A stretch of DNA of 64,000 bases, taken from the NCBI GenBank assembly GCA_964492835.1, contig CAZBLC010000001.1:19596-83595 (forward strand). Direction: 5' to 3'. The stretch comes from an uncultured Candidatus Saccharibacteria bacterium (GTDB lineage: Bacteria > Patescibacteriota > Minisyncoccia > Phycocordibacterales > PALSA-1337). Every line of letters begins with the position of its first letter. Position 1 is the stretch's first letter. Positions 27,684 through 54,689 of this stretch are shown piece by piece. A program made the position numbers and the translations under genes. The notes under the pieces are model-generated. The model did not search any database. It was not told the origin of the DNA and saw nothing but the letters and a program-made list of their open reading frames with translations.

Positions 27684-29498
27684 TTACTTTATATTAATCT
27701 TATAAGTCCTAGCCCAAATCTGAAAAGTTATTATAGCCCAAAGCATAGTAAAATGATATGAATCCTTTGATAGATGCTTATCATATATATCATTTATCTC
27801 ACCCCAGTTGAATATCTCTGCTGTAGGTTGATAGTATTTGTCACTGAATATATTTCTTACATATTTTGAAATTTCTGGATCTCTAAGCCATTTTGCGCCA
27901 GGAGAAAACCACCCTCGTTTTGGTTGTTTGAACAAATACTTAGGTAAAAGAAGCTTCATAGATTCCTTTAATAAGACTTTGGTATTAAATAAATTTATCT
28001 TTTTATTTAGAGGTATTTTCCTTGAATATTCAAATAATTCCAGATCTAGTAGTGGTACACGTAATTCTAATCCTGACGCCATTGAAGTCTTATCGCTTCT
28101 CATTAAAGATTCATCTACCAACCAACTCTTTTGGTCGGTTTCCATTAGTAATTCTGGACCACTTTTATTTAGATTGTCAAAATATTTTTTTTCAAAAAAC
28201 TTCTTTGACGGTTCCAATTTAAAATCTCTCGAAATAACCCTGAATAATTCTTTATCCTTTTGGAACATAAACAATTCAAATTGGTCTATCCCCTTTTTGG
28301 TATTTAATTTTAGTAATTTACTACTATTAATATATTCTCTAATAAATTTAGGAATAGTCTGATAATAGACTGATAATAGACTTATTTTATACCTCTCATA
28401 TCCACCAAACAATTCATCTCCTCCATCTCCACCAAGAACCACAGCAACTCTTTGCTTTGCAAAACGTGCAAGCTTAATCATTGGTATTATTGTCGGGTTA
28501 GATATTGGTTCGTCCAAATGATAAATAGCCTCTTCTAGCAATGGAATTATTTCATTTTTTTTAACAAAAATCTCGTTATGTTGTGTTTTATATATCTGAG
28601 CTGTGGTACGAGCAAGCAACATATCCATATTAAATTTATCCGCTTGCTCATCTTTATCTAACTCAAAACCAACACTAAAGGTGATTATATCCTTTCTAAA
28701 GGTAGATACTGCTTGTAATACAGTGGTTGAATCTATGCCACCAGAAAGATATATACCTAGTGGTCTGTCAGAAATCAGTTGTCTCTTAACTGATTCATAT
28801 ATCACCTCTCTTAGTTCTTTAGAATTTATAGAATTATTTTCTATATTTTTGTATGGATTATATTTATTAATAGTCATTTTTTTATCTTTAAGATAAAGAT
28901 AATTACTGGGTGGTAGCTTATTTATATTATTAAAAAGCGTAAACGGCTCTGGCACATATAGAATTCTCATATAGTGAGCAAATGCTTCTTTATTTAGAGT
29001 CCTGTCAATAGGGTGCTCAAGAATTGCTTTGATTTCAGATGAAAAAATGAATTTATCACCATCCCAATAATAGTACAATGGCTTTATTCCTATTGGATCC
29101 CTAGCAATAAATAAACTCATTTCGAGATTATCCCAGATAGCAAAAGCAAACATACCGTTAAAGCGACTAACGCATTCCTTACCCCATTTTTTATATGCCG
29201 CAAGAATGACTTCGGTATCGCCAGTAGTTACGAAATCATACTCACTTTTCATCTCATCTTTGATTTCATTAAAATTATATATTTCCCCATTGAAAACAAT
29301 GATAAATCGACCGTCGTCGCTTTTCATCGGCTGGTTTGCTATTGATCTTGTATCAAGAATACTCAGACGATTATGACCTAAAGATATATCGCTATTAAGA
29401 AAAACTCCGGTACCATCTGGTCCTCGGTGTTTTAAACATTGGTTCATTTTCTCAATGTATTCTTTGTTTTCCCAGTTAAATCCATTTATAGCACACAT
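27684..29498 (-). CDS. asnB: Asparagine synthase (glutamine-hydrolysing)-family amidotransferase (WbpS/AsnB-like)
   Basis: N-terminal Ntn Cys MCAINGF...HRGPDGTG and the central PP-loop SGGIDS. Confidence 0.9.
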   Translation of the reverse strand: MCAINGFNWENKEYIEKMNQCLKHRGPDGTGVFLNSDISLGHNRLSILDTRSIANQPMKSDDGRFIIVFNGEIYNFNEIKDEMKSEYDFVTTGDTEVILAAYKKWGKECVSRFNGMFAFAIWDNLEMSLFIARDPIGIKPLYYYWDGDKFIFSSEIKAILEHPIDRTLNKEAFAHYMRILYVPEPFTLFNNINKLPPSNYLYLKDKKMTINKYNPYKNIENNSINSKELREVIYESVKRQLISDRPLGIYLSGGIDSTTVLQAVSTFRKDIITFSVGFELDKDEQADKFNMDMLLARTTAQIYKTQHNEIFVKKNEIIPLLEEAIYHLDEPISNPTIIPMIKLARFAKQRVAVVLGGDGGDELFGGYERYKISLLSVYYQTIPKFIREYINSSKLLKLNTKKGIDQFELFMFQKDKELFRVISRDFKLEPSKKFFEKKYFDNLNKSGPELLMETDQKSWLVDESLMRSDKTSMASGLELRVPLLDLELFEYSRKIPLNKKINLFNTKVLLKESMKLLLPKYLFKQPKRGWFSPGAKWLRDPEISKYVRNIFSDKYYQPTAEIFNWGEINDIYDKHLSKDSYHFTMLWAIITFQIWARTYKINIK

Positions 29499-29523
29499 TA
29501 TTAAAAGTATACTTTAACTATTA

Positions 29524-30744
29524 TTAATTGTCACATATTATATTCAATTCCCTAGATAGATTCGAATCTATTATATTCATGTCGAATAACTGCTTAGACT
29601 TGTTTCTAGCTGCCTTTCCTAATCTGATACGTAAATCATAATCATTTACCAATTTATCAATATTATTTATGTATTCCTGCGCAGTTTTTGACTCTAAATA
29701 GTCTGCGTTTTTAACAAAAGGATAATCAGCAATTCCTCTATCCGATGTGATTACCGGGAAACCCCTCATCAATGGTTCAAAAATCTTTTGTTGCATACCT
29801 GCCCCAAAGAGTGAAGGAACGATAGCAATATCCATATCTTTTAGAAAAGTATTCAAATCAACAATAAACCCTCTATATATAACATTCCTTGGAAAAACAT
29901 TAAGTATACTTTCTGGTAGTTTTGTTCCTGTTATATTTATAATTACTCTATTGCCATATTTTTCTAATAATGCTGGGGCTATATTTTTAATAATAAAAAG
30001 TAGTGCTTGCTTATTATGAGATACATTATATGTAGATCCCATAAAGAATATATTTATATTTTTACTCTCCTTATTTGGTATATACTCAGGTAAATAATGT
30101 AAACCTCTCAGTGGTAGATTTATTGTCTTTCTTGCTCCAATTCTCTTGTAAATCTTTTCTTCCTGTGGTGTTATTGAGCATATTAGATCACTAGCTCTTG
30201 CTACTTTTTTTTCTGACAAAAATTTTGGTATTGATTTCAAATAATTTAAAATAGATCTACCATCTTCATCTAAAAAATGTACTGCTTCGTAGTTTAAAGA
30301 TCTGGTAACAATAGGTATTTTATTTTTTTGGGCGACTTGATAAAGTGGCCATAAATATGAGTATTCAAACCACACAATGTCTGGCTTCCAAATATCTATG
30401 GTATTACACATAAGATTGATCATTTCTGGATCAGTATATTCAAATGCAGCACCATCTAAATATGAAAAATGTTTTAGTCTCTTCATGATTATTTTTATTT
30501 TTTGAAGTAAAGTCTTATCAGATAAATTATATTTATATGACACAGTTTGAACATCAATATTTCCAACTGATTTTGAAAAATTACTGATATCTGAATTGCT
30601 TTGATTTTTCTTTCTCTTGGCGATAACTCTCACCTCGTATCCTAAACGTACAAGCTGGCGTATTCCATTAGCGCGATCAGATTGTTCTGCTCCATTTTCT
30701 GGATAAGGTACAACTGGGCAAATAATCAATATCTTATTTTTCAT
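29524..30744 (-). CDS. Glycosyltransferase family 4
   Basis: GT-B architecture, C-terminal FEPLMRGFPVITS motif. Confidence 0.7.
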   Translation of the reverse strand: MKNKILIICPVVPYPENGAEQSDRANGIRQLVRLGYEVRVIAKRKKNQSNSDISNFSKSVGNIDVQTVSYKYNLSDKTLLQKIKIIMKRLKHFSYLDGAAFEYTDPEMINLMCNTIDIWKPDIVWFEYSYLWPLYQVAQKNKIPIVTRSLNYEAVHFLDEDGRSILNYLKSIPKFLSEKKVARASDLICSITPQEEKIYKRIGARKTINLPLRGLHYLPEYIPNKESKNINIFFMGSTYNVSHNKQALLFIIKNIAPALLEKYGNRVIINITGTKLPESILNVFPRNVIYRGFIVDLNTFLKDMDIAIVPSLFGAGMQQKIFEPLMRGFPVITSDRGIADYPFVKNADYLESKTAQEYINNIDKLVNDYDLRIRLGKAARNKSKQLFDMNIIDSNLSRELNIICDN

Positions 30745-31778
30745 TTATTTAAATTAGTAATAATTCTAGGGATTAATAATTTTAATGAGTGATTTTCATT
30801 TACGTATTTTACATAATAATCATTTATCGATTTATTTTTACTATCAAGCATTAACACCTTGTTTATTGATTTTGCTAAATCATCTGCGTTTCTATTTGTA
30901 AAGAGAAAAGGGTGGTTAGAAAATATCTTTTCGAAGGCTGGATTTGAAGTAATAACAATAGTACCTGAAGCCATAGCTTCCAGTATTGCCTTATCGAGAC
31001 TTCCTGTATCGCTCATATTCAAAAAAAGATCTGCAGAATTTAAAATATCACAAAGTTTATCTTGTGAAACTTTACCCTTCATTTCAAATGTGTTGTTTGG
31101 TGATGTTTCAATCTTTTTATTTAATTTTTCTACATATTCGACATCTCTATACATAACTGCCTCACCCCAGAACTCACATGTAATTTTTCTATTACTTTTT
31201 ATTGTATTAACGGCATCAATCATAAATTCGTAGCCTTTCGATTGTGTAAATCTACCTACTGAAACAATCTTAAATTCATTACCGTTTTTATTGAAATTTA
31301 GTGGTTTAAAAATATCAACATCGATACCATGTCCCATTACGTTTATCTTATTACTTTTAAGTCTGAAACTTTCTTTTGAGGCAGTAAATATTTTATCGAC
31401 TATTAAAGTTGCAATTCTTAATGACTTTGTAACACTTCTATGTGTATACCATAGAGAAATATTTTTATTATATAACTTCCAAAAAACGCCACCGAGGATT
31501 ACATATATTTGATTCATATGCACAAAGACACTATCGTAATTTTTACGTTCTATCCAAATATATTTATAAAAATTAATAATATATCTAATCCTAGATTCCC
31601 TAATTTCTTTACCAAGCGATAGGACTTTTACATTATTAGGTAACTCATTTTTACCTTTATACAAGCAAATAACTACAATTGATTCACAATTTTTAGAAAA
31701 AACATCTATCCATCTATAGAAAAATCCCAGTATTGGATCGTCTTTGTCTACTTTTTGTGTAATGATCAATAATTTCAT
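30741..31778 (-). CDS. Glycosyltransferase family 4
   Basis: GSLDKAILEAMASGTIVITSN motif. Confidence 0.7.
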   Translation of the reverse strand: MKLLIITQKVDKDDPILGFFYRWIDVFSKNCESIVVICLYKGKNELPNNVKVLSLGKEIRESRIRYIINFYKYIWIERKNYDSVFVHMNQIYVILGGVFWKLYNKNISLWYTHRSVTKSLRIATLIVDKIFTASKESFRLKSNKINVMGHGIDVDIFKPLNFNKNGNEFKIVSVGRFTQSKGYEFMIDAVNTIKSNRKITCEFWGEAVMYRDVEYVEKLNKKIETSPNNTFEMKGKVSQDKLCDILNSADLFLNMSDTGSLDKAILEAMASGTIVITSNPAFEKIFSNHPFLFTNRNADDLAKSINKVLMLDSKNKSINDYYVKYVNENHSLKLLIPRIITNLNK

Positions 31779-32635
31779 TTTCCGATTCTTTCTAAAAACT
31801 TCTTACTATATACTCCTCTCACTAAATCCATATCTTTTCCAGAATTGACCAGTAGTTTTACATTTATATTTCGTATTGTCTCGAGCATTTTTACATGTTC
31901 ATCTAAAACCTTGCTTTTTTTAGTTATTTCAATAAATGCCTCGAAATCTTTTATAAAACAATCTCCGCCGGCACCCCTACCTTTACCATCAAGTGGGTTT
32001 AAATATCGATGTGCCATGAGAGGGTCTGCCATAAAAGCAGATTTTAGATTGTCCCATTTCATATTATTATTTTTAGCTAAATCCAATAATAGATTGGAAT
32101 AAACTACCTGTATATATCCATTCACATTATGGCCATACTTAATAAACTCTGCTTCATTTGAGGAGCAAATAAGTTCATACGGGGCCTTTGCCAATACACT
32201 CATTATCATTTTAGCTTTAGTTCTGTATAAAGTAGTATTTTTTGGCATACCAATAATATTGCGTTCTGGATTTTCAGCATCGTATGCAGCAGTTTTTCTA
32301 CTTAAAAATTCAGGAGAATGGAAAATAAATAGATCTTTATATTTTTCCTGCAACTCAATGGTTTTACCAAAAATAAGAGTAGATTTTATAACTACAATTT
32401 TACCCTTACTAATAGTAGACAGTGCGCTACGCAAAAAACTATCATCAAAAATGCGATCTACGGTAGGAGTTGGTACAGCTACAAAAATAATATCAGCTGA
32501 GTTTATTATTTCCCTATTGTTGATATATTTTTTATCAAGGGAATATCGAATAACATCATAACCTCTCTTCTCAAAGTCATTCGCATAATTATAACCAACC
32601 CATCCTTGTCCGATAAATCCGATTTTCATTTTCAT
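31775..32635 (-). CDS. UDP-glucose/GDP-mannose dehydrogenase-family protein, short form lacking the C-terminal UDP-binding domain
   Basis: N-terminal Rossmann KIGFIGQGWVG, IFVAVPTPT, SPEFLSRKTAAYD (NPEFLREGxA-like) and the catalytic-Cys motif GGDCFIKDF (GGSCFPKD-like). Only 286 aa. Confidence 0.65.
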   Translation of the reverse strand: MKMKIGFIGQGWVGYNYANDFEKRGYDVIRYSLDKKYINNREIINSADIIFVAVPTPTVDRIFDDSFLRSALSTISKGKIVVIKSTLIFGKTIELQEKYKDLFIFHSPEFLSRKTAAYDAENPERNIIGMPKNTTLYRTKAKMIMSVLAKAPYELICSSNEAEFIKYGHNVNGYIQVVYSNLLLDLAKNNNMKWDNLKSAFMADPLMAHRYLNPLDGKGRGAGGDCFIKDFEAFIEITKKSKVLDEHVKMLETIRNINVKLLVNSGKDMDLVRGVYSKKFLERIGK

Positions 32636-33591
32636 TTTGTTATATATGACTTTACCGTTTTTTCCAATCCTTCATCAAAGGATATCTCTGGATTATAACC
32701 AAGAATTATACGCGCCTTGTCTATATTAGCAAAGCTATTCTTTACATCACCCTTTCTTTCAGGCAAATACTTTATATGAATAGATTTGCCAAATATTTTA
32801 TTAATTTTACTTACCATATCGTTTAGAGAAACAAAACTTCCATACGAAGCATTGAATACCTCCCCAAAACCTTCTTCTACTTTAAGTGCACAAATATTTG
32901 CATCAACAACGTTTTTAATAAAGGTGAAATCTCTAAAATTTTCACCGTCACCGTATATTTCTGGAGATTTGTCCTCATTAATTAATTTAATAAACTTAGG
33001 AATTACAGCTGAATATGTTGAGTTTGGATTTTGTCTAGGACCAAAAACATTGAAATAGCGAAGTCCGATGGTTTTCAATCCATACAATGAGGTAAATATC
33101 TTAGCATAATATTCCATTGATAATTTCTGTAACGCGTATGGGGAAAGTGGATCTGGTATCATAGCTTCTGTTTTGGGGAGTGTTTTGGTGTTGCCATATA
33201 CAGAACTAGACGAAGCATATATTACTCTATCTACTTTTGCATGATGTGCAGCAATAAAAACACTTAGCGATCCGGTTGAGTTTGCCATATGGGTTTCCAT
33301 AGGCATTTCTATACTTCTCGGGACCACATTTAATGCTGCTTCATGTAATACAGCGTACGCTCCTTCAAAAATCTTTTTCAAAGCGTCTGTATCAATTATA
33401 TCAGTCTTATGAAATTCAATCTTATCTCTAACACCATCAAGATTTTTTACATTTCCATTTGAAAGATTATCTACCACAACCACGTTCGCGCCGTCACTTA
33501 CAAGTTCATCGACTATATGTGAACCAATGAATCCGGCACCGCCTGTTACAACTATTTTTTTATCTTTTAAAAATTCTCTATTTTTTATCAT
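32632..33591 (-). CDS. NAD-dependent nucleotide-sugar epimerase/dehydratase (SDR; UDP-GlcA/UDP-GlcNAc 4-epimerase-like)
   Basis: VTGGAGFIGSH Rossmann motif and the catalytic YxxxK (YALQK). 319 aa. Confidence 0.85.
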   Translation of the reverse strand: MIKNREFLKDKKIVVTGGAGFIGSHIVDELVSDGANVVVVDNLSNGNVKNLDGVRDKIEFHKTDIIDTDALKKIFEGAYAVLHEAALNVVPRSIEMPMETHMANSTGSLSVFIAAHHAKVDRVIYASSSSVYGNTKTLPKTEAMIPDPLSPYALQKLSMEYYAKIFTSLYGLKTIGLRYFNVFGPRQNPNSTYSAVIPKFIKLINEDKSPEIYGDGENFRDFTFIKNVVDANICALKVEEGFGEVFNASYGSFVSLNDMVSKINKIFGKSIHIKYLPERKGDVKNSFANIDKARIILGYNPEISFDEGLEKTVKSYITK

Positions 33592-34640
33592 ATATTTTTT
33601 AAAATTTCATTAGCTACACTTTTTACTGAAAAATCAGCAATACTTGCTCCTGCTTCCCTTGCGATACCAACATCGGTTGAAACGATTTTACACCCTGCTG
33701 CTTGTGCTTCTTTAAACACCATTCCATACCCTTCATAGAAAGAAGTATTTAAAAACACATCACATCCTTTATAGTATGGAACTAGATCTGTTTGCCAGCC
33801 CTCAAATACCATTATATCCTCCAATTTTAGCTTATACGACAGTCTTTTTAGACTTTCTAGTCTTTTGCCGGAACCTACTATAACTAACCCTATATCACTG
33901 ATTTGTGCCTTTACGATCTCCATGGCTTTTATACCTAACTCTATATTCTTTTCATCCTCTATACGTGAAGCCATTAGGATGATCTTTTTGAATTGTGGGT
34001 ATTTTTGTTTAAGGTCGAAACTTGGTGTTGTTGTCTTTATATATTCAACATTTACATCAATTGGTTTAACAATTATCCTATCCTTATCTATCTTTCTTGA
34101 TACCAATGAATCCGCAATTCTATTAGACACCACTCGTATTACTTGCGCATGAGGGATTGTAAATCGAGAGATGAAAAGTCTAATTCTATTAATCAATGCA
34201 TTGATATATCCAATTTTAGGACTAATGAAATATGGACTATATAGATCTGTATGTATTTGTAGTAGCAATTCGGAATACTTTTTTAGATTAGCTAAGCATT
34301 TACCAACCAGAGCTGTCTCAAATACATCCTGACAACTAACTAAAACTAGTTCATCTTTATCCACCTTCTTTAATATCTTTTTGCCAATCTTACAAGCATC
34401 ACTTACGTAGTTTAGTCTTACAATAGAGTTTGTAGAGTATATTGTACAGTTATCAGCTATACTTATTGGCTCATAGTTTTTTGTTGAAAAAACTATTATA
34501 TGTAGTTCCTTGTACAACTTTGAGTATTCAAGCATTCTCGCTCTTACTGAACTCTTTTCATTTAGGACAAGTCTATCTGTAGACACCATTACAGCAATAT
34601 AATTTATATATGTTTTATATTCAGTATTATATCTTTCCAT
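33588..34640 (-). CDS. Glycosyltransferase family 4
   Basis: EGYGMVFKEAQAAGCKIVSTDVG motif. Confidence 0.7.
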   Translation of the reverse strand: MERYNTEYKTYINYIAVMVSTDRLVLNEKSSVRARMLEYSKLYKELHIIVFSTKNYEPISIADNCTIYSTNSIVRLNYVSDACKIGKKILKKVDKDELVLVSCQDVFETALVGKCLANLKKYSELLLQIHTDLYSPYFISPKIGYINALINRIRLFISRFTIPHAQVIRVVSNRIADSLVSRKIDKDRIIVKPIDVNVEYIKTTTPSFDLKQKYPQFKKIILMASRIEDEKNIELGIKAMEIVKAQISDIGLVIVGSGKRLESLKRLSYKLKLEDIMVFEGWQTDLVPYYKGCDVFLNTSFYEGYGMVFKEAQAAGCKIVSTDVGIAREAGASIADFSVKSVANEILKNI

Positions 34641-35634
34641 AAATAGAAATTATTTCTTTTCCAATATCACTCCATGTATGTGTCCAAGTAAATCTCTTTA
34701 TCTTCTCTGCTTGCATGTCTCTGTTCTTTCTGTCAGACATCCATACTATCTTTTCTACTATATCTTTTTCATTCATCGGGTCTACAAAAATTGCACAATC
34801 CTTAACTCTCTCTGATATTCCAGTTTCTTTAGTTAGGATGAATGGAGTACCTACTCTTATTGCATCAAATATCATATTTGGACTTATATCTCCTATTGAG
34901 GTAAGGATAACGGCATATGATCTACGCATTCTCTCTTGGAAGTTATCATATACTGCTTTTGTTGTATCGAATTCTATAGGTTCTGTAACTTTAGTTTGAG
35001 CAATTTTAAATGTTTTTTTTAGCATATCTATATTCTTCCACACCAGCTCTCTTGTTCCAGCAACAAATACTCTGTTCTCTGGTTGTATCTGTTCTTCTCT
35101 TGCACCACAGAAGTTCTCTACTATCTTACTCTTTCTTGAATCAAGCTTATACGCTTTCTCGAAAATATTCTTTTGCCATTCTGTGCTGTATATTACAGTA
35201 CTAGCATTTCGGAGTGCATCTCCACCAAGTTTGTATACTAGTTTCTCCTTTCTGCTTAGTTTGTTTAGAGAGGTGTAATAGAAATCTTTGAACAGGACTA
35301 GCTCTCCTGTTCTTTCAGTATATGACTCCCATAGAAAATCTCCTCCAGTTCGTACGATATACTTCTTCCTCATTATCTTACATGCATACATTGTAGGCAC
35401 TGCAGCACTCCATGTATCAAGTACTAGTATCATATCTGCATTCCATCCTTTTCTAAATATCTTAAGGAAAAATAGGATGTGTCTTATGAAAGTAGGAAAA
35501 GCTCTTTCCCAACGGTAGGCTGCAACCTTAACATCATGTCCTTCTCCCTTCCATGTCTCGTATAGGTTACGAGCATATTGAGCCGGTCCTCCTATATCTG
35601 GAGGATATATACCTGTTGAAATTAAGATCTTCAT
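34627..35634 (-). CDS. Glycosyltransferase (GT-B, GT4-like)
   Basis: MKILISTGIYPPDIGGPAQYARNL N-terminus typical of GT4 N-domains. Confidence 0.6.
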   Translation of the reverse strand: MKILISTGIYPPDIGGPAQYARNLYETWKGEGHDVKVAAYRWERAFPTFIRHILFFLKIFRKGWNADMILVLDTWSAAVPTMYACKIMRKKYIVRTGGDFLWESYTERTGELVLFKDFYYTSLNKLSRKEKLVYKLGGDALRNASTVIYSTEWQKNIFEKAYKLDSRKSKIVENFCGAREEQIQPENRVFVAGTRELVWKNIDMLKKTFKIAQTKVTEPIEFDTTKAVYDNFQERMRRSYAVILTSIGDISPNMIFDAIRVGTPFILTKETGISERVKDCAIFVDPMNEKDIVEKIVWMSDRKNRDMQAEKIKRFTWTHTWSDIGKEIISIYGKI

Positions 35635-36812
35635 ATTACCTTTAAGAATACCTCATTTTTCATATCATTTGCAATGATATTCCATTCATACTTCTCTTTG
35701 ACCATTTCCATAGCATTCTTAACGATATAGTCTCTAGATTCACTATCCTTTATTAACTTCTCTACTTTCTGAGCAATACTGCTAGGGTTTTGTACTTCAC
35801 ATAATAGTCCTGTCTCTCCATCCTTAAGGAAATCTAATATTCCCCCAACTGGAGTAGCTATAACTGGTATACCAGCTGCCATAGCTTCGATGTATGAATT
35901 ACCAAATCCTTCAGAAAGTGATGGTCTTATAAATATATCTGAAACATGTAGATATTGTGGCATATCCTTATGTGGTACGTATCCTAGAAATATCACTCGA
36001 TTCTCTAGACCAAGAGTTTTTACTTTCTCTTTTAGCTCCACTTCCTGATACCCAGTACCTAGTATTAAAAATTTAACATTTGAAGGTAGGTATTGCATGC
36101 TTGATATGATATCTCCGACAGCATTCTTAACTACTAGTCTTGAGGTTGTGATTAGGAATATATCATCTATCTTTTTTCCAAGTTTCTGTTTCAATATTTC
36201 TAGTTCTGTATGTGGTTTTCTTGTAGAGAAGAGATTAAAATCTACTGCATTTGGTATTACTGTTACAGGACACTTCGCTTTCATGTCGAGTGCCCAATCT
36301 GCTAGATATTTAGATATTGTTTGTATGTGATCTGCTTTTGTAAATATTTTTTTAAATAGCGGATATACAAACATAGCTCTTCTCTTGATGTATGGTATTG
36401 GATCACCTTCTTGTAGAGTCAGGATGAATGGTATTTTGGGATTTAGCATTTTAAATATAACAGCAGCAAATGAGTTATATGTAGCCATCATTGACCATAT
36501 AGCGTCATACTTGTTCTGCTTATGTAATTTAATTGCCTTTACTAATGCAGTAATTGGCATTAGATATTTGTTTAGGTGTAAATACCAAGGTAGAGAATCT
36601 GATGAATTCTTTTGTGTTCCTGTATATCCAACTCTATATACATTTATGTTCCCTATCCTCTCGTAACTAGGTAATTTAGAATCTAAATGCAGAGTCACCA
36701 TATCAAACTGTATTTCCTCATTTGGAATCCTGTCAGTTATCTCCTTTATAGCAACCTCTGCTCCCCCTATAAATTTTGGATAGTATACTAAAGAAAATAT
36801 TAGTATTTTCAT
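35631..36812 (-). CDS. Glycosyltransferase family 4
   Basis: MKILIFSLVYYPKFIGGAEV N-terminus and SEGFGNSYIEAMAAGIPVIATPVGG motif. Confidence 0.8.
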   Translation of the reverse strand: MKILIFSLVYYPKFIGGAEVAIKEITDRIPNEEIQFDMVTLHLDSKLPSYERIGNINVYRVGYTGTQKNSSDSLPWYLHLNKYLMPITALVKAIKLHKQNKYDAIWSMMATYNSFAAVIFKMLNPKIPFILTLQEGDPIPYIKRRAMFVYPLFKKIFTKADHIQTISKYLADWALDMKAKCPVTVIPNAVDFNLFSTRKPHTELEILKQKLGKKIDDIFLITTSRLVVKNAVGDIISSMQYLPSNVKFLILGTGYQEVELKEKVKTLGLENRVIFLGYVPHKDMPQYLHVSDIFIRPSLSEGFGNSYIEAMAAGIPVIATPVGGILDFLKDGETGLLCEVQNPSSIAQKVEKLIKDSESRDYIVKNAMEMVKEKYEWNIIANDMKNEVFLKVI

Positions 36813-36816
36813 GTAT

Positions 36817-38499
36817 TTACTCTACCTTAAGTACGTTCCTAAGTACATCTTCTGAAACCTCCTTTTTTGTGTCGGTATTTGGAGTTGTAGTCTGCGTTTT
36901 GCCAGCATTCTGAGTGTTTCCTAGTATAGATGCTAATGCATTTTTTAATTCATTTACACGCTCTGGTTGTGCATCCTTCTTATGATTATTCTTTGGTGTA
37001 TTTGAGAGTGAATTCAGTGATACTGAATTAAGTTTAGGCATTGGACTTACAAATGTCTTTGTAGGCTCTGCTACTTTTACAACAGGCTTTTCTACTACAA
37101 CTTGAGGTGCAGGTGGTGCTATTGGCTTTGGTTCTGGAGTAACTGGCTTTGGTACCTCTACAGGTTTAGGTGCTGGAGCAATATCTTTTGGTTTGTCCTT
37201 CATTACTGGCTTTATCGGCATCATCCAGTCATCAATTGCTTTTTCAACATCAACTCTCTTGCTTGCAAACTGTGATCTTGAACTCTCTATAACCCGTTCC
37301 ATACTTGAACTCTCAGGTTTTGCAATTGGAGGCAGGGTAGTTGCAGAGAATGGCGCTGAACTTACTCCGTCTATCATGAGTTTTAAGTATATTTGATATA
37401 TACCCAAGTTAACTATATCTTCTGCTGTAAATTGTGGTGAGAATTCTTTCTCGAGTACTTCAGCATCAAATGCTCCTACACGGAATACAATCATTGTTCC
37501 AACGTTACCGAATACAGCATTACGTACTTCTTCTTCCATTTGTTCGATGTACTGGTGAGCAATTGTAAGATTAAGTTTGTATTTTCTAGCCTCTGAAAGA
37601 ATATCTGCAAATGATTCATTGGCGAATGACTGGAACTCGTCTACAAAGAGATAGAAGTTAGGGAGTGTCTTAAGCACACGATCTGGTACGTCTGCGCGAG
37701 ATAGCGCAGCTAGATATATTTTTGTAATTATCATTCCTCCTAATAGGTTTGCATTTGATTCTCCAATTCTTCCTTTTGATAGGTTAACGATAAAAATCTT
37801 ACCTTCATCCATCATCTTACGAATATTGAATGATGATTTTGGCTGCCCTATCATGTTTCGTATTAGCGCATTGGCTGTGAACTGTCCGATCTTGTTTTGT
37901 ATCGCTGGCACTGCTTCTGCAGCCATTCTTTCTGTATAGTTTGCAAACTCTTGTACCCAGAATGCTTTAACTGATGAATCTGTGACATGAGAGATCACAA
38001 GCTTTCTATATTCTTTGTCTGAAAGCATACGATTTACTCCAAGTAGAGTTGCATCTGGATATTCAAGTAGAGCAAGTAGGGTGTTTGTAAGGATATATTC
38101 CATACGAGCTGACCAAGCATCTTGCCAGATCTTCTTGAATGTACTCATTAGTCCAGATACTACTAGATGTCTTTTGTCTGGGTCTACGTTCTCAAGTACG
38201 TTAAAGGATATTGGATAGTCCATATCGAATGGAGCAAAATATACTACATCCTTCTGTCTATGTTCTGGTACATATTCTAGCAGTAGCTCTGCAGTCTTTC
38301 CGTGAGGATCAATGAATGCCATTCCTTCCCCATTCTTAATATCCTGAACAGCCATGTTCTCAAGTACAGTTGATTTTCCCATACCTGTCTTTCCGATAAC
38401 GTACACATGCTTAGTCCTATCTTTTGCTTTAATACCAAAAGTTACCTTTTTGTTTCTAGAGTCTGTCTGTCCAAAATATGTTATTTTTTCGTCGTTCAT
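36817..38499 (-). CDS. Soluble P-loop NTPase of the TraG/VirD4/HerA-FtsK (DUF87-like) superfamily with a Pro/Lys/Val-rich C-terminal tail
   Basis: Walker A VIGKTGMGKST and Walker B LFVDEF. TraG-D_C-like IAHQYIEQ region. No N-terminal TM helices. C-terminal low-complexity PAPKPVEVPKPVTPEPKPIAPPAPQVVVEKPVVKV. Confidence 0.6.
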   Translation of the reverse strand: MNDEKITYFGQTDSRNKKVTFGIKAKDRTKHVYVIGKTGMGKSTVLENMAVQDIKNGEGMAFIDPHGKTAELLLEYVPEHRQKDVVYFAPFDMDYPISFNVLENVDPDKRHLVVSGLMSTFKKIWQDAWSARMEYILTNTLLALLEYPDATLLGVNRMLSDKEYRKLVISHVTDSSVKAFWVQEFANYTERMAAEAVPAIQNKIGQFTANALIRNMIGQPKSSFNIRKMMDEGKIFIVNLSKGRIGESNANLLGGMIITKIYLAALSRADVPDRVLKTLPNFYLFVDEFQSFANESFADILSEARKYKLNLTIAHQYIEQMEEEVRNAVFGNVGTMIVFRVGAFDAEVLEKEFSPQFTAEDIVNLGIYQIYLKLMIDGVSSAPFSATTLPPIAKPESSSMERVIESSRSQFASKRVDVEKAIDDWMMPIKPVMKDKPKDIAPAPKPVEVPKPVTPEPKPIAPPAPQVVVEKPVVKVAEPTKTFVSPMPKLNSVSLNSLSNTPKNNHKKDAQPERVNELKNALASILGNTQNAGKTQTTTPNTDTKKEVSEDVLRNVLKVE

Positions 38500-38560
38500 A
38501 TGGAGCTTTAATATGTTTATATTCTAGCATGAAATACTTATGGTAAGTATTTAATTTTCC

Positions 38561-38594
38561 CCATAAACAAAACTCCCGCTTGGAAGCGGGAGAG
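38561..38594 (-). terminator. Rho-independent terminator downstream of the pilin gene
   Basis: ctcccgctt-cc-aagcgggag hairpin followed on the minus strand by TTTTGTTTAT. Confidence 0.6.
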
Positions 38595-38616
38595 ATGTTT
38601 AAAAAGAATTTTATAA

Positions 38617-39081
38617 CTAGCAAGTAACGTCTGGTGCAGTACCTCCTAGCATAGTTGCTGCTCCTTCCTTAGTGTTACCTGTACTATCAACACAGTAGAA
38701 GTTACCTGATCCACCTCCTAGTCTAGCCTCAACTGCCCAAGCAGATCCACTTGTATAACATGTCAAAGTTGTTCCAGATGGATAACTGTCTGTATCTGAA
38801 AGATTTACGATTCCACTTGTTGAATCAGTCCAAGGTGTTGATGAAGGTGTTGCTGAACATCCGTTTGTATTCGCAGATGCTCCGTAGTTTCCTGGAGTAA
38901 CATAATATGTCTCCATAGCTCCTCTTATACTAGCCAATTGACCCTTGATCTTAGCATCATTACCCTTTGTTCTAGCTGTGTTCAATGAAGCTAATACCAC
39001 TGATGATAGAATACCGATGATAGCGATAACTACAAGCAACTCAATCAATGTAAAACCTTTTTCTAAATATGATTTCTTCAT
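38617..39081 (-). CDS. Type IV pilin (class III signal peptide prepilin)
   Basis: MKKSYLEKG|FTLIELLVVIAIIGIL, the canonical prepilin peptidase site with Glu+5. 154 aa, C-terminal Cys pair. Confidence 0.9.
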   Translation of the reverse strand: MKKSYLEKGFTLIELLVVIAIIGILSSVVLASLNTARTKGNDAKIKGQLASIRGAMETYYVTPGNYGASANTNGCSATPSSTPWTDSTSGIVNLSDTDSYPSGTTLTCYTSGSAWAVEARLGGGSGNFYCVDSTGNTKEGAATMLGGTAPDVTC

Positions 39082-39221
39082 AACGAAATTAATTAACCTA
39101 AATAAACTTTAATAATAATTACTTATGGCATAAGTATATCAAACTATAGATAAAGATAGCAACGCTATGTGGATAACCTTGTTGTATTCAACAAGAGCTG
39201 TCCTGCATAGGATAACTCTAG

Positions 39222-40430
39222 CTACTGTGAACTCGCCACGTTGTATATAGGAATAAGAACTGATGCAAGAAGTGTAGCCACTCCAAGTCCAAGTAGCACA
39301 ATCATTGCCGGCTCAATAAGATCAACCAGAGCATCTACAGCTGTAGTAACCTCTCTAGCATAGAATCGAGCTAGAGTTTTTAGAATATTACCAAGCTCTC
39401 CTGTCTCTTCTCCCACCTTCATCATTTGAATCATAATACCAGGAATCTCACCATTAACTGAAAGGGATTCTGATACTGTCTTACCAGCCTTAACTGACTC
39501 TACAGCATCAGCAAGTAGCTTATGATATATACTGTTGTTAATAACGGAAGAAGTAAGTTCTAGAGCGCGGATCATAGGAATACCAGATACTAGCATTGTA
39601 TTCATGTTGTCTGATAGTCTTGCCCAATACAGTTTTCTAAATAGGTTACTTAGATATGGGATACTAAGTTTTACTTGGTCAAATATAACTGCACCTGAAG
39701 GAGTACGTATATATCTAACAAGTAGAAAACCTAGAACTATAACTACCCCGAGCATTACGAATCCATATGCAACAAAGAAATTACTAATACCCAATACTAT
39801 TTTAGTATACACAGGTATCTCCTGTCCTGATTCAACCAAGATTGCACTAATCTTTGGAATAACCATAGTGAACATAAGGATCATAACTGTAATGAAGGTA
39901 GACATAACGAATGCTGGGTATATAAGGGCACTTTTTGCCTTTGATACTAGCTCGTATGTACGATCCAAATAGTCAGCTAGGTAACTAAATGTCTCATTTA
40001 GCTTTCCTGACTCCTCTCCAGCCTTCACCATACTTACATAAAACTCTGAGAATACCTTAGGATGTTTTTCAAGTGCAGCTGAAATAGCACTACCAGCCTG
40101 TAGATCATCTGCAATTACTAGAAGCTTTGCACCCAACACCTTGTTCTCTGCTTCAGATCCAAGAAGTCTAAATACACGGAGTGCAGAAACCTGAGCTTCA
40201 AAGAGTGTAGCTAGTTGTCTTGAGAGAATAACTACATCCTTGTTAGATACTCTGTCGAAGAATGATAGATTCATTGAAAGCACTCCTCCCTTTTTACTAG
40301 CTTCTACAATTGAAGTAATTACCAAACCTCTTCTTTGCAGTGAAGCGATAGCAATATCCACATTTGCAGCATCTATTGATCCTGTTTTTGGTGCACCTGT
40401 TTGATCTACTGATTGATAATTAAAAAGCAT
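39222..40430 (-). CDS. pilC: Type IV pilus assembly platform protein (GspF family)
   Basis: 402 aa with duplicated GspF domains and 3 TM segments. Position in the pilus operon. Confidence 0.9.
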   Translation of the reverse strand: MLFNYQSVDQTGAPKTGSIDAANVDIAIASLQRRGLVITSIVEASKKGGVLSMNLSFFDRVSNKDVVILSRQLATLFEAQVSALRVFRLLGSEAENKVLGAKLLVIADDLQAGSAISAALEKHPKVFSEFYVSMVKAGEESGKLNETFSYLADYLDRTYELVSKAKSALIYPAFVMSTFITVMILMFTMVIPKISAILVESGQEIPVYTKIVLGISNFFVAYGFVMLGVVIVLGFLLVRYIRTPSGAVIFDQVKLSIPYLSNLFRKLYWARLSDNMNTMLVSGIPMIRALELTSSVINNSIYHKLLADAVESVKAGKTVSESLSVNGEIPGIMIQMMKVGEETGELGNILKTLARFYAREVTTAVDALVDLIEPAMIVLLGLGVATLLASVLIPIYNVASSQ

Positions 40431-40437
40431 ATAAAAA

Positions 40438-41496
40438 TTATATCATTCTTTCCAAATTTTTGGGATTGTTAGAGTTAAGATATGCGTTCTCAACTGTAAT
40501 CTCTCCTTTTCTAACAAGTTCAGCTAAACATCTATTCATATCAATCATACCTTCTTGTGAACTTGTCTCAATAACTGTATTAATTTCATGTATTCTCTTC
40601 TCTCGTATTAGGTTTGCAACAGCAGAGTTGTTAATCAATAGCTCATATGCAGGAATCAATCCTCCTGAAATACGTGGAATCAATCTCTGTGAGAATATAG
40701 CTGTCATACTACCAGCTAGCTGAATACGAATTTGATCCTGCTGATTTGCTGGGAATGAGTCAATAATACGGTTTAGTGTCTGTGCAGCGTTATTTGTATG
40801 TAATGTAGAGAATACTAAGTGTCCTGTCTCAGCTGCAGTTACGGCTGTCTGTATTGTCTCTGGATCACGCATCTCACCCACCAAAGCAACATCGATATCC
40901 TGTCTAAACATTGCAACTAGTGCGTCTTTGAAATCAGGGGTATCTATCTTAACCTCTCTCTGATCAATTATTGATTTCTTTGATTCATATAGATACTCAA
41001 CTGGATCCTCAATAGTCATTATGTGCTCATTTCTAGTCTGGTTAATTATCTCAATCAAAGCAGCTAGTGTTGTAGACTTACCCTGACCAATTGGTCCTAC
41101 ACAAAGAAAGAATCCTTGTGGCTTTCTGGTAAATGATTCAAGTATTGGAGGAAGATTAAGATCAGCTATTGTCTTAATTTGTTTTGGTATCAAACGTAGT
41201 GCAACAGAAAGTACACCTTGATGATAGTATGCATTTCCACGGAAACGAATGTTAGTAAGGCTGTATGAAAAATCTACATCTTTATCTTTTAAAAGTAGCA
41301 CCTTATTCTCCTCACTAAGAAATTCATTAATATACCCCTTCATATCCTCATTTGATATTACAGATTTCTTAACTAGGGGTATTAGACTTCCAGAAACACG
41401 AATGAATGGAGTACGTCCTTCAGCCAAATGAAGATCTGATGCTCCTTCATTTATAACTGTACTTACTAATAGCTCAATTTCTTTTTTATAATCCAT
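40438..41496 (-). CDS. pilT: Type IV pilus retraction ATPase; ORF extends to 41544 but MDYKKEIELL is the likely start
   Basis: PilT-type motifs LVGEMRDPETI, GHLVFSTLHTNNAAQT, Walker A GPIGQGKST. ~350 aa. Confidence 0.9.
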   Translation of the reverse strand: MDYKKEIELLVSTVINEGASDLHLAEGRTPFIRVSGSLIPLVKKSVISNEDMKGYINEFLSEENKVLLLKDKDVDFSYSLTNIRFRGNAYYHQGVLSVALRLIPKQIKTIADLNLPPILESFTRKPQGFFLCVGPIGQGKSTTLAALIEIINQTRNEHIMTIEDPVEYLYESKKSIIDQREVKIDTPDFKDALVAMFRQDIDVALVGEMRDPETIQTAVTAAETGHLVFSTLHTNNAAQTLNRIIDSFPANQQDQIRIQLAGSMTAIFSQRLIPRISGGLIPAYELLINNSAVANLIREKRIHEINTVIETSSQEGMIDMNRCLAELVRKGEITVENAYLNSNNPKNLERMI

Positions 41497-41500
41497 AATA

Positions 41501-41890
41501 TTATTGTTTCTTAGAATGCGAATAAATTTTCTCGACTTCAGCAAGAAGTTCAGAAGGTATAGTCGTAGCCTTTATTATATACCCATCTACGTTTAATTTC
41601 TTTGCTCGAGCTATATCATCAGGGAGACCTTGGTTTGTAAGCATGATTACAACTGTCTTTTTAATTAAATTCTCTTTCCTTAGAGCAGTAAGTAATTCAA
41701 TTCCATCCATTCCAGGCATGATCAAATCTAGTATTAGTACGTCTGGTTCCATTCCTCCCTTCAACACTTTCAATGCTTCTTCTGTGGTTGAACATGTATG
41801 CACAGAATGTTTAGCATTAGTAAACTTAGTGATGTACATATCAAGAAGAAACTTATCATCATCTACAAAAAGTACATTTAATGGTTTCAT
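41501..41890 (-). CDS. Single-domain CheY-like response regulator receiver (PilH-like)
   Basis: VLFVDDD...DVLILDLIMPGMDG...KPF receiver motifs. 129 aa, no output domain. Confidence 0.8.
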   Translation of the reverse strand: MKPLNVLFVDDDKFLLDMYITKFTNAKHSVHTCSTTEEALKVLKGGMEPDVLILDLIMPGMDGIELLTALRKENLIKKTVVIMLTNQGLPDDIARAKKLNVDGYIIKATTIPSELLAEVEKIYSHSKKQ

Positions 41891-41891
41891 A

Positions 41892-43613
41892 TTATAGTTT
41901 ATTTACTTCTTCAAATGGTATCTTTCTCTCGAATGCTTTAATCATCGCATCCTCCTTAATTGAGAGCATTCCCTTTTGTCTAAGCAGTCTACTTATCTCA
42001 AGTTCAGTAGGACTCTTTAGAATTACACTCTCTATCTCCTTGTCCATTCTAAATGCCTCAAACACAGCCATACGTCCTCTTGTTCCCTTAGGACAATCTG
42101 GAGTTGGATCAATACCATATACAGTATCCTTAAATGGAATATCTCCTTTGTACTGTTCTGGTAGATCTGAGAATTGCTTATCAATTATCATTTTTATACT
42201 TCCATCAACTGGTATTGGTTTACCTGAATTTGGAGGTAGCATAGATACAAGTCTCTGAGCGATAGCTAGAACAAGAGTTGGTGCGATAAGGTAAGGATCC
42301 ACACCCATGTCGATAAGACGAGGGATGACACCAGCTGAGTTGTTGGTGTGGAGTGTAGAGAATACCAAGTGTCCTGTTAGAGCAGCTTGTACAGCTAGCT
42401 GAGCAGTCTCCTTGTCTCGGATCTCTCCGATCATGATCACATCAGGGTCCTGGCGTAGTGTTGTTCTAAGTCCAGATGCAAATGTATACCCAATCTCAGC
42501 ATGCACCTGAGACTGACTTACCCCATCCATGTTGTACTCGATAGGGTCTTCGAGAGAAAGTACGTTCATTCCCTCCTTATCAACTTCATTCAACATAGAG
42601 TACAGAGTTGTAGACTTTCCAGATCCCGTAGGTCCAGTAATTAGGATTAGTCCGTATGGTCTAGCTATCGCCTCTTTAACCAATTCTAGATTCTTTGGTG
42701 TAAGTCCGATCTCATCGATCTTCTTTACTCCCTTTTCTTGATCCAAGATACGCATCACGACTTTCTCTCCATAATATGCTGGGAATGTAGATACACGGAA
42801 GTCTATCTTTCTTCCATCGATACGTGCAGAGAATCTACCGTCTTGAGGCTTTCTCTTTTCATCAAGCTTCATGTTACAAAGCACTTTGATACGAGCAACA
42901 ACCGCATTGTGTACTTGCGGTGGTAGTACTAGACTTGTATTAAGTGTTCCATCAACACGGAAACGCACTCTAATCTTGTCACGCATATGCTCAATGTGCA
43001 CATCGGATGCATTTCCCTCAGTTGCATAACGAACGATAGTTGCCACAATCTTAACAACCGGAGCATCTTCTATAATTACAGTATTCTGCTTCTTGTCATT
43101 CGTAGTCTTTGCATTCTTTAGATCTACAGTACTGTCCTTATCAACAGACAATACAGACTCTAGTTCTGTAAGAGCCTTAGATACTTCTCCTCCAATTCCT
43201 TTATATGACTCTAAAACTTTTTGGTAGTCATCAATAGTTATTAAAAATACTTTGTATGGAACATTACCCTTTGAAGCAATGAAGTTTAGAGCATCTCGAG
43301 CTTCTATATTATCTGGGTTAACTATACCCACTTCAAGTACTCCTTCACTTAGACCTATCGGTACGAACTTATAGTGTGCAGCTGATTCTTCTGGTATATA
43401 GTCTAGAGCTTCAAATGGTACTGTAGTCTCACCTAAACTTCTTGTAGGTATGTTAAGTAGCTCTCCACGTGCAGCAAGTATATCTTCAGGATGTACTCCC
43501 TTTTCAATCAATACTTGATCAAGATTCTCACCGTCTGCAGTAAGTTTCTTTATCTCAGTTATATCATCTTTTGTTAAAAGATTTTTGTTTAAAAGAATAT
43601 CTGTAACACTCAT
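41892..43613 (-). CDS. pilB: Type IV pilus assembly/extension ATPase (GspE family) with N-terminal T2SSE_N domain
   Basis: Walker A GPTGSGKST, Asp box, His box GHLVFSTLHTN. 573 aa. Confidence 0.92.
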   Translation of the reverse strand: MSVTDILLNKNLLTKDDITEIKKLTADGENLDQVLIEKGVHPEDILAARGELLNIPTRSLGETTVPFEALDYIPEESAAHYKFVPIGLSEGVLEVGIVNPDNIEARDALNFIASKGNVPYKVFLITIDDYQKVLESYKGIGGEVSKALTELESVLSVDKDSTVDLKNAKTTNDKKQNTVIIEDAPVVKIVATIVRYATEGNASDVHIEHMRDKIRVRFRVDGTLNTSLVLPPQVHNAVVARIKVLCNMKLDEKRKPQDGRFSARIDGRKIDFRVSTFPAYYGEKVVMRILDQEKGVKKIDEIGLTPKNLELVKEAIARPYGLILITGPTGSGKSTTLYSMLNEVDKEGMNVLSLEDPIEYNMDGVSQSQVHAEIGYTFASGLRTTLRQDPDVIMIGEIRDKETAQLAVQAALTGHLVFSTLHTNNSAGVIPRLIDMGVDPYLIAPTLVLAIAQRLVSMLPPNSGKPIPVDGSIKMIIDKQFSDLPEQYKGDIPFKDTVYGIDPTPDCPKGTRGRMAVFEAFRMDKEIESVILKSPTELEISRLLRQKGMLSIKEDAMIKAFERKIPFEEVNKL

Positions 43614-54669: not shown

Positions 54670-54689
54670 ATATTATTAATTATTCTAAG

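Follow-up and report, generated by a model that had tools for sequence, protein, structure and literature searches.

A membrane-anchorless, coupling-protein-like ATPase at the head of a glycan gene array in Patescibacteria

The window analyzed here, a stretch of 64,000 nucleotides from contig CAZBLC010000001.1 (assembly GCA_964492835.1), encodes a 560-residue P-loop ATPase on its minus strand, and sequence and predicted fold together place this protein, with high confidence, in the VirD4/TrwB branch (the type IV coupling proteins, T4CPs) of the FtsK-HerA P-loop ATPases. The ATPase appears to be the headless form, typical of class Paceibacteria, of a phylum-wide family in which a T4CP-like core follows a transmembrane (TM) helix and a domain annotated as DUF8128. 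From its distribution, the gene is best described as a vertically inherited chromosomal core gene of Patescibacteria. The explanation that we favor for its function is a composite one, which we think has about an even chance of being right: the protein would be a soluble, tail-tethered ring-ATPase subunit of a Patescibacteria-specific VirB4/VirD4-like machine. The part of this explanation that concerns docking and translocation is more tentative, and somewhat less likely than not.

The gene is an uninterrupted frame of 560 codons with an ATG start (36817..38499, minus strand). The initial annotation had described a 560-residue P-loop NTPase with coupling-protein-like motifs, and this description is supported by the open reading frame (ORF), by the Walker A and B motifs and by matches to four Pfam families above their gathering thresholds. 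The features of the protein on which the argument relies are listed below, where A1 denotes an alignment of 42 homologs and AF2 an AlphaFold2 model.

36817..38499, minus strand: complete coding sequence of the soluble T4CP-like ATPase, 560 residues, stop codon at 36817-36819 (ORF list and translation, Pfam, homologs).
38371..38394, minus strand: Walker A motif (P-loop) GKTGMGKS, residues 36-43, located by regular expression on the translation, invariant in A1 and paired with the P-loop of TrwB.
37636..37653, minus strand: Walker B motif YLFVDE, residues 283-288, with D286 and E287 invariant, paired with LFIDE of TrwB.
37552..37596, minus strand: motif EARKYKLNLTIAHQ, residues 302-316, in which R304 and Q315 pair with the GRK...Q motif of TrwB.
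37225..38499, minus strand: ATPase core, residues 1-425, a RecA-like nucleotide-binding domain with an inserted all-alpha domain (TrwB_AAD_bind, TrwB match, Foldseek).
37810..38187, minus strand: all-alpha insert domain, about residues 105-230 (AF2 helices at 106-230, pLDDT blocks mostly 85-94; nearly invariant in A1).

Seven residues of these motifs (K41, S42, D286, E287, R304, K305 and Q315) are invariant in A1, and R304 and Q315 are candidates for the arginine-finger or sensor residues. The four Pfam families above gathering are TrwB_AAD_bind (8.5e-10, residues 24-342; 38.5 bits against a cut-off of 20.5), T4SS-DNA_transf (1e-8), TraG-D_C (3e-6) and DUF87 (3e-7; score 31 against a cut-off of 23.2). 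The all-alpha insert falls inside the TrwB_AAD_bind alignment, and its predicted fold suggests that it is the T4CP-specific substrate- or DNA-binding module. No NCBIfam equivalog or subfamily cut-off was reached (SXT_TraD was the best, with 49 bits against 366, and conju_CD1115 scored 38.9 against 250), and the TraD, VirD4-like, CedD and VirB4 models of NCBIfam match with scores far under the curated cut-offs, mostly over the P-loop only. In the PDB, only TrwB of plasmid R388 gives a meaningful match by sequence (E = 2e-4), with Walker A, Walker B and the GRK...Q motif aligned, and a profile search of A1 against the PDB sequences found nothing past the TrwB P-loop. Moreover, the ATPase has no T2SSE match in Pfam or NCBIfam, unlike PilB (41892-43613) and PilT (40438-41544) in the same window.

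The predicted fold is more discriminating. When an AF2 model of the ATPase, built on 42 homologs, was compared with the PDB by Foldseek (E <= 1e-3), 34 matches were obtained and 34/34 are type IV coupling proteins, including DotL (6sz9), TrwB (1e9r, 1e9s, 1gki, 1gl6 and 1gl7) and Cag-beta (8dol). These matches have E-values from 1e-6 to 1e-4 at an identity of about 14-16%, and the next structure is VirB4/TrwK at E = 0.07. Since the fold matches are to T4CPs only and the motifs are invariant, the protein is a T4CP-fold ATPase with its catalytic residues intact. The initial annotation had left VirD4, TraG, HerA and FtsK side by side as possible relatives; the VirD4/TraG branch is retained by the structure prediction and the other two are dropped. 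As for HerA, the DUF87 match and the PADLOC HerA match are at the level of the superfamily only, no HerA structure is among the significant fold matches, the protein has no HAS-barrel-type N-domain, and no NurA-like or effector neighbor was found among the window ORFs scanned. FtsK/SpoIIIE was likewise rejected, as the protein shows no FtsK_SpoIIIE Pfam match (E <= 0.01), no gamma domain, no FtsK fold match and no TM segment.

That the ATPase has no N-terminal membrane anchor had also been claimed in the initial annotation, and the claim stands. The highest Kyte-Doolittle mean over 19 residues is 1.24, so that the protein contains no TM helix, and its N-terminus cannot be extended upstream because the listed ORFs run from the first start codon after a stop. 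Furthermore, the N-terminus MN(D/E)E.ITYF is conserved between the window ATPase and its homologs. Among the top 150 cluster representatives, in which the two forms were counted, 67 are headless, with Walker A at residues 25-80 as in the window ATPase, and 40 are headed, with Walker A past residue 250 and a core identity of 47-57%. The head is a module of about 350-450 residues before the core, which consists of a hydrophobic (TM) helix followed by a conserved soluble domain annotated PF26449 (DUF8128) in precomputed annotation; the named proteins that carry it come from Saccharimonadia, Berkelbacteria and unclassified Patescibacteria. The N-terminus of the window ATPase, EKITYFGQTDSRNKKVTFGIKAKDRTKHVYVIGKTGMGKS, aligns to the segment DELTVLGQTNFRNEAIKFGIKKKDRRLHSYLIGKTGTGKS of a headed protein that lies directly after the DUF8128 module; the head has hence been lost by a clean cut where the two domains meet. 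The window ATPase shares with the family the relatedness of the core and a chromosomal context outside any type IV secretion system (T4SS), and lacks the TM helix and the DUF8128 head. As a separate gene, the DUF8128 module was found neither in the window nor within 10 kb of the ATPase in 80 related loci (tblastn and hmmsearch), and no second paralog or small partner of about 97 residues was found beside the ATPase in the Paceibacteria loci.

What the missing head might be is suggested by its own predicted structure. Residues 1-380 of the Berkelbacteria protein P0298, modeled by AF2 on 44 sequences, give a mean pLDDT of 84.2, with a TM helix (residues 2-30) that precedes an alpha/beta domain. 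The top 13 Foldseek matches of this model are all TrwK/VirB4 chains (E = 1e-5 to 1.5e-4), the best of which is a 457-residue TrwK chain with 397 columns aligned. Because the model has no P-loop and hits no other ATPase, the match was assigned to the non-ATPase N-terminal domain of VirB4, which DUF8128 probably resembles. It is through this N-terminal domain that VirB4 is joined to VirB3 and to the inner-membrane complex in the R388 structures. By this comparison, the family would have a head of VirB4 type on a motor of VirD4 type. No mention of DUF8128 was found in the literature searched.

The core is widely and strongly conserved. More than 8000 homologs of the window ATPase were found, an identical protein is present in a public collection, and the best 120 homologs are 67-100% identical, most of them aligned over the full length; those named among these 120 belong to Patescibacteria, including Paceibacteria and Taylorbacteria. 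Compared with representatives of clusters at 50% identity, the core (residues 1-425) matches 22,428 clusters at E <= 1e-3 and 6,069 at E <= 1e-30. For the comparison of gene order, 80 related loci were taken from assemblies with one genome per species, and their ORFs were called and matched to the window proteins; five of the source genomes are assigned to class Paceibacteria in Table S1 of PMC12102498, and the accessions of the orthologs include KKU96004, KND46690, OHA88740 and OHA15954. The window itself, with a G+C content of about 33%, has the gene content of an ordinary chromosome (enolase, iPGM, FtsH, RecG, tmRNA and tRNAs), the GC content of the ATPase gene agrees with that of its surroundings, and housekeeping or envelope genes surround the family members in every lineage sampled.

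On plasmids, a tblastn search found 742 records, none of which reaches 60% identity; most of the plasmids are non-mobilizable. The best plasmid match is a solitary, bare core of 395 residues with 42% identity, among recombinases and transposases on Sulfitobacter plasmid NZ_CP081110 (L084 8980-10167), and a solitary 708-residue relative with 31% identity lies among CHAT/TPR genes on Bradyrhizobium plasmid NZ_CP064708 (L085 7065-9191). These two are the closest relatives outside Patescibacteria; both are on non-mobilizable plasmids and neither is in a T4SS. The broader clade thus includes solitary genes that are located in accessory regions.

The C-terminal tail had been noted in the initial annotation for its PxxP and KPV repeats, and the count confirms them: the last 135 residues contain four KPV and four PxxP motifs and 15.6% proline. 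The tail is divided as follows, with identities given as means against the window protein across 41 homologs.

36985..37224, minus strand: Pro/Lys-rich variable linker, residues 426-505, predicted to be disordered (composition; pLDDT below 50; 30.6% mean identity).
36919..36984, minus strand: tail motif 1, residues 506-527, containing ...RVNELKNALASILG..., predicted helix (66.5% mean identity; helix 511-526 in the model).
36820..36870, minus strand: C-terminal peptide, residues 544-560, KEVSEDVLRNVLKVE, candidate docking motif (70.9% mean identity over residues 544-559; helix 549-556 in the model).

The core reaches 88.4% on the same scale, and the spacer between the two peptides (residues 528-543) only 9.8%. 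In tail motif 1, residues P511, L517, A520 and L521 are invariant in A1. A motif of the C-terminal type is present within the last 30 residues of 90/120 top homologs and also in divergent headless representatives. As read from the aligned sequences, this pattern marks a core gene that evolves slowly and bears a fast-evolving tether with two short conserved peptides.

We searched for regularities on both sides of the gene, and the elements of the window on which the comparison rests are given here.

38573..38592, minus strand: intrinsic terminator of the upstream pilin gene, with an 8-bp stem, 6 GC pairs and a T run (terminator scan and direct reading).
38521..38529, minus strand: extended -10-like element TGCTAGAAT, a candidate promoter for the ATPase and the glycan array, within the 117-nt spacer (read from the sequence).
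35631..36812, minus strand: GT4 glycosyltransferase gene, the most conserved syntenic partner, 4 nt 3' of the ATPase (Glycos_transf_1, 2.6e-40).
30741..35634, minus strand: further partners, namely a GT4-like gene at 34627-35634 and GT4 genes at 33588-34640 and 30741-31778 (Pfam).

On the downstream side, the ATPase is the first of 29 co-directional genes that extend over about 29 kb (9152-38499, minus strand) with gaps of at most 44 nt, and a scan of 29000-40000 showed no minus-strand terminator inside this stretch. The array contains many GT4 genes together with GT2, epimerase, UDP-sugar dehydrogenase, AsnB and methyltransferase genes, and the region also has a Wzy_C protein and, on the opposite strand, a flippase. 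In this genome, the GT4 partners at 30741..35634 have an epimerase and a UDP-sugar dehydrogenase among them. Start and stop codons overlap in many genes of the array, by 4-14 nt in these partner genes. The ortholog of the GT4 gene at 35631-36812 is the immediate same-strand next gene in 43/69 loci, with a modal gap of 4 nt; some GT4-family gene is among the next two genes in 61/69; and orthologs of the further partners follow the ATPase in the same order in 39-51/80 loci. The loci that depart from this linkage have other glycan genes instead: in L049 and L066 a Wzy_C-TPR homolog of window 5627-7858 is directly downstream, in L057 it is nearby, and in L018 there is a GT2-like ORF, judged from sequence alone. 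Over the 80 loci, the median identity is 72% for the whole ATPase and 54%, 48%, 44% and 40% for the four downstream GT4 genes.

On the upstream side, the window has pilin, PilC, PilT, response-regulator, PilB and PilMNO-like genes, with a ComFC-like PRTase gene nearby. The position directly 3' of the pilin terminator, near pilT and comFC, had been reported correctly in the initial annotation. This neighborhood is not general, however: type IV pilus genes occur within four genes upstream of the ATPase in only 7/57 loci with enough upstream sequence, and these seven are the closest relatives of the window. In 40/57 loci, the upstream neighbor is instead a same-strand ORF of about 390 residues, and the one that was tested, from L031, encodes a putative glycoside hydrolase of the DUF4015 type (Pfam, 4e-95) with a membrane anchor; in L016, this ORF comes after MraY, Mur-ligase and ATP-grasp genes. 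The GT4 linkage persists through the upstream rearrangement that brought in the pilus operon. Across the relatives, the ATPase keeps its place at the start of the glycan array, and it is the pilus operon that varies; contrary to the initial annotation, the gene is therefore not an insertion between two loci. A strong terminator and a promoter-like element separate the ATPase from the pilus operon. The gene may have its own promoter, as suggested by the element at 38521..38529, which a consensus promoter scan did not list.

Several further observations concern these flanks. In about a dozen loci, an ORF of about 450-580 residues lies between the ATPase and the first GT4 gene; the one tested (L061 2352-4001, 549 residues) encodes a secreted surface protein with lamin-tail (LTD) and PKD domains and a C-terminal anchor. 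The 743-residue Wzy_C protein of the window (5627-7858, minus strand), which resembles O-antigen ligases and O-oligosaccharyltransferases and has C-terminal TPR repeats, could be an O-glycosylation enzyme for pilin or an S-layer, as the pilus operon is close. The PilT ORF (40438-41544, minus strand) starts at a TTG and overlaps the preceding response-regulator gene (41501-41890, minus strand) by 44 nt, and the true start is probably further downstream; the single-domain response regulator between PilB and PilT is kept in related pilus operons. Most Paceibacteria relatives (L013, L028, L029 and about 40 others) have a non-coding gap of 300-800 bp between the DUF4015 gene and the ATPase (9363-10000 in L031, 9215-10000 in L016), which is not present in the window. 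The gap is far more GC-rich than the locus (e.g., 0.44 vs. 0.28). The L031 gap is much more stably folded than shuffled controls (z = -8.1), and its fold can be read as a pair of structured elements with a terminator-like hairpin at the end of each. Rfam gave no match for the gap, whose sequence is kept only between close relatives; it probably represents one or two uncharacterized small RNA genes.

The headed relatives have their own, quite different surroundings, and a genome usually has two such paralogs. Five loci (Berkelbacteria CP066697, one Saccharimonadia metagenome-assembled genome and three metagenomic contigs) share one arrangement, in which TGT is followed by a protein of 95-118 residues, which is acidic and Pro-rich, a DUF8128-ATPase of 798-833 residues and a second one of 975-1027 residues; SecF and SecD are convergent downstream, ribosomal protein genes are nearby, and there is no GT4 gene. 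The tandem units, always between TGT and SecDF, are located as follows.

L081: 6286-11970.
L082: 6311-12048.
L083: 6307-11928.
L086: 3485-9937.
L087: 4255-10084.

The window ATPase is 48-54% identical to the longer tandem paralog and 41-42% identical to the shorter one. The headed clade nearest to the window core is that of P0167 (57% identity), which is solitary and lies between sigma-factor-like and Peptidase_M23 genes, among RecR, YbaB, tRNA synthetase, GreA and FtsQ genes. All the headed loci studied (L081-L083 and L086-L089) are chromosomal, have a non-T4SS context and are not near pilus or com genes. One member of the P0167 clade, P0411 (L088 9001-12159), carries a bona fide S1 domain (RNA/ssDNA-binding) on its C-terminal tail (residues 895-968, E = 6e-20); although a single case, it hints at a single-stranded nucleic-acid substrate.

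Genetic data are available for Southlakia epibionticum ML1, which has two family members, SEML1_0293 and SEML1_0142 (Wang et al. 2023, PMC10633639, Table S2), both flagged "core family" and "Patescibacteria enriched" in Table S1 of the same study. SEML1_0293 has PF10412 at residues 402-719 and adjoins a sigma factor, and SEML1_0142 has a P-loop domain at residues 381-800 with no Pfam match. SEML1_0142 and a small upstream gene were called essential (ES/ES/ES and GD/ES/ES, respectively) (PMC10633639). From its Pfam signature and its sigma-factor context, SEML1_0293 is probably the closer counterpart of the window ATPase.

On these grounds, the composite explanation can be stated as follows. The ATPase would assemble into a ring, by analogy with TrwB; its all-alpha domain would engage the substrate, either nucleic acid or protein; and the Pro-rich tether with its two conserved helical peptides would dock the ATPase onto a partner, most plausibly a membrane-anchored DUF8128 paralog or otherwise another envelope-associated platform. 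The protein would then act as a cytoplasmic substrate-recruiting or translocating subunit of a VirB4/VirD4-like apparatus. A DUF8128 paralog is the most economical partner, because Paceibacteria genomes appear, in the part of Table S3 of PMC12102498 that was examined, to retain a tandem or near-tandem pair.

A number of points weigh against this explanation. Its support consists of sequence and models, and the oligomeric state and the substrate are predicted. The AF2 model of the ATPase is of moderate quality only (mean pLDDT of 65.6), with a confident helical insert, parts of the nucleotide-binding core below 50 and low confidence throughout the tail. The tight and conserved GT4 operon link is not used by the composite explanation and points to a role with glycans instead. 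The neighborhood of the family varies between classes, and no conserved functional partner was found. SEML1_0293, which has the same Pfam signature as the window ATPase, was scored as non-essential (NE) throughout the three time points, although its normalized reads dropped from 5817 to 2940 and 1372 as flanking non-essential genes stayed flat (PMC10633639). Finally, the search for DUF8128 and VirB4 in the window's own genome covered 64 kb only.

Among the rival explanations, the ATPase could be a coupling protein of the Patescibacteria T4SS that is encoded in trans and recruits substrates for a VirB4, TrsD, VirB3, VirB6 and VirB2 cluster elsewhere in the genome. A survey of 3,035 Patescibacteria genomes found 5,713 VirD4-type T4CP homologs in 2,918 of them, VirB4 in 2,417 and relaxases in 103 (Quinonero-Coronel et al. 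2025, PMC12102498). T4CP genes are often away from virB4, and the part of Table S3 in that study that was examined lists Paceibacteria genomes with three to four T4CP-type hits, including a tandem or near-tandem pair and none near virB4, and with a VirB4/TrsD/VirB3/VirB2 cluster elsewhere in the genome, so that a cluster and several T4CP hits coexist. In S. epibionticum, no coupling protein could be recognized in the T4SS cluster, which is essential (PMC10633639), and the fold of the window ATPase would suit the vacancy. However, only 148/5,713 homologs are near virB4, genomes with a T4CP outnumber those with VirB4, and the authors of the survey suggested exaptation of the orphan T4CPs (PMC12102498). 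Of the five Paceibacteria genomes mentioned above, those of L077 and L073, which are about 1 Mb and carry the ortholog, are listed without VirB4, and the three others with it (Table S1, PMC12102498). SEML1_0293 is non-essential though the T4SS is essential (PMC10633639), and the window ATPase has no membrane anchor. We consider this explanation unlikely. A role with the probably co-transcribed GT4 enzymes, as an ATP-driven organizer or exporter-associated motor in envelope glycan synthesis or protein glycosylation, would account for the operon linkage, its modal gap of 4 nt, its survival of the pilus-side rearrangement and the first position among 29 glycan genes, as well as for the Wzy_C-TPR gene that is beside or near the ATPase in L049, L057 and L066 instead and for the usual upstream neighbors in relatives (DUF4015, MraY and Mur ligase). 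Yet we know of no T4CP-fold ATPase in glycan synthesis, and the GT4 link is seen in one class only, where it may go back to one ancestral arrangement; headed orthologs elsewhere adjoin TGT/SecDF or sigma-factor/M23 genes without GT4. The ATPase also evolves far more slowly than the GT4 genes (median identity of 72% vs. 40-54%), and compact CPR genomes often string unrelated genes together. A glycan role is, in our judgment, unlikely as well, slightly more so than the role in trans. A bolder reading is that Patescibacteria have a hitherto unrecognized VirB4-head/VirD4-motor machine throughout the phylum, apart from the canonical T4SS and usually with two paralogs, of which one is essential in S. 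epibionticum, and that its anchorless Paceibacteria copy was recruited as cytoplasmic motor or organizer in the biogenesis of envelope glycans or glycoproteins. This is a long shot; if true, it would be the first coupling-protein-type ATPase in the assembly of polysaccharides or surface glycoconjugates rather than in DNA or effector transfer.

The initial annotation had proposed a pilus-associated or competence motor that couples type IV pilus DNA uptake to import, and had itself named absence of the gene from pilus loci in relatives as evidence to the contrary. The pilus operon and the ComFC-like gene next to the window ATPase, the handling of single-stranded DNA by T4CP-type ATPases in conjugation and the S1 domain of one relative speak for such a motor. 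Conservation beside type IV pilus operons in no more than 7/57 loci, the terminator and separate promoter-like element between the pilin gene and the ATPase, and the location of orthologs of other classes away from pilus or com genes make it very unlikely. The other proposal of the initial annotation, a remnant of a conjugative element, taken here as an integrated element or plasmid in decay, fits the T4CP family assignment and the distant relatives on plasmids, which are 28-42% identical and sometimes lie among recombinases and transposases. However, the window ORFs scanned (64 kb) include no gene for a relaxase, a VirB protein, an integrase or a transposase, and neither a relaxase nor a VirB-type T4SS gene was found within 10 kb of the ATPase in the 80 loci; the gene does not differ from its surroundings in GC content, the frame and the catalytic motifs are intact, the core is about 88% conserved, the position is conserved across 80 genomes, and relaxases are rare in the phylum by the survey cited above (PMC12102498). 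A remnant is scarcely credible. Hardly more probable is a role as the ATPase in anti-phage defense or conflict, as with HerA or mad8, for which there are PADLOC matches of the window ATPase (mad8, 1.4e-14; HerA, 3e-10), the Bradyrhizobium plasmid relative among CHAT/TPR genes and a weak GT4-conflict Pfam match of the downstream GT4. The gene is near-universal, single-locus, syntenic and slowly evolving, the opposite of what is seen in defense islands, its context is housekeeping in all classes examined, and no neighboring gene matches PADLOC, including the adjacent GT4 genes; a description of mad8 was not found in the literature searched. We agree with the initial annotation that the role of the ATPase is not obvious from its context.

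Patescibacteria make up a large share of bacterial diversity and rely on cell-surface machines for their host-attached lifestyle, and most of their conserved lineage-enriched proteins are without known function. The ATPase family, so far filed as orphan "coupling proteins," is among the most conserved Patescibacteria-enriched proteins, and one of its members is essential in the single species that can be manipulated genetically. Three results offer testable handles on what the family does: the putative VirB4-head/VirD4-motor hybrid, the class-wide anchorless version with its candidate docking peptide, and the linkage of this version to a GT4 operon in place of pili or a T4SS. The hybrid architecture, if correct, bears on the divergence of VirB4 and VirD4. 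As for annotation, such genes in CPR genomes should not be taken as evidence of conjugation or of integrated mobile elements.

Three other features of the window are worth recording. A 353-residue ORF with two LAGLIDADG_3 homing-endonuclease domains (54779-55840, minus strand) adjoins tRNA-Ser(GCT) at 54689-54777 and a 149-residue ORF, and may be a free-standing or intron-derived homing endonuclease. A tRNA-Ile with the uncommon anticodon TAT is located at 58513-58588 (minus strand); most bacteria decode AUA with a lysidine-modified CAU tRNA. The tmRNA (61753-62171, plus strand) has a long tag peptide of 28 residues, AKSAITKAKSTVSPYFGANSFAFAYATV.

Compared with known systems, the window ATPase resembles TrwB, VirD4, Cag-beta and DotL in its RecA-like nucleotide-binding domain with an inserted all-alpha domain and in its aligned catalytic motifs. 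Canonical T4CPs differ in having an N-terminal TM domain, linkage to a relaxase or T4SS, and carriage as cargo on a plasmid or an integrative and conjugative element, none of which applies to the window ATPase. VirB4 (TrwK) has a head of a type that the window ATPase lacks, and the VirB4 NCBIfam matches cover the P-loop only; HerA and FtsK/SpoIIIE share the P-loop superfamily with it and differ in fold matches. A C-terminal extension is also present in TraD and DotL, and in the window ATPase it could bind partners. TraD provides a comparable case of a disordered extension that ends in a short conserved peptide, and the KP/EP-rich composition of the window tail resembles that of the rigid polyproline spacers of TonB type; the tail of F-plasmid TraD, which binds TraM, has no sequence similarity to that of the window ATPase, and no TraM homolog was found. 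The closest comparison is with the orphan T4CP homologs of Patescibacteria, which are already known (PMC12102498). The headless form, the GT4-operon link, the tail peptides and a VirB4-like DUF8128 were not described in the literature searched, where nothing relevant to a link between glycosyltransferases and coupling proteins in Patescibacteria was found either. The orphan homologs and the window ATPase belong to the same phylum-wide set, with the core of the latter 48-57% identical to headed members and its Pfam signature the same as that of SEML1_0293. Members of other classes have the TM helix and DUF8128, and the window ATPase is without both; unlike them, it has a different tail with an end of the E-V-P/S-E-D-V-L type, and it heads a GT4 operon.

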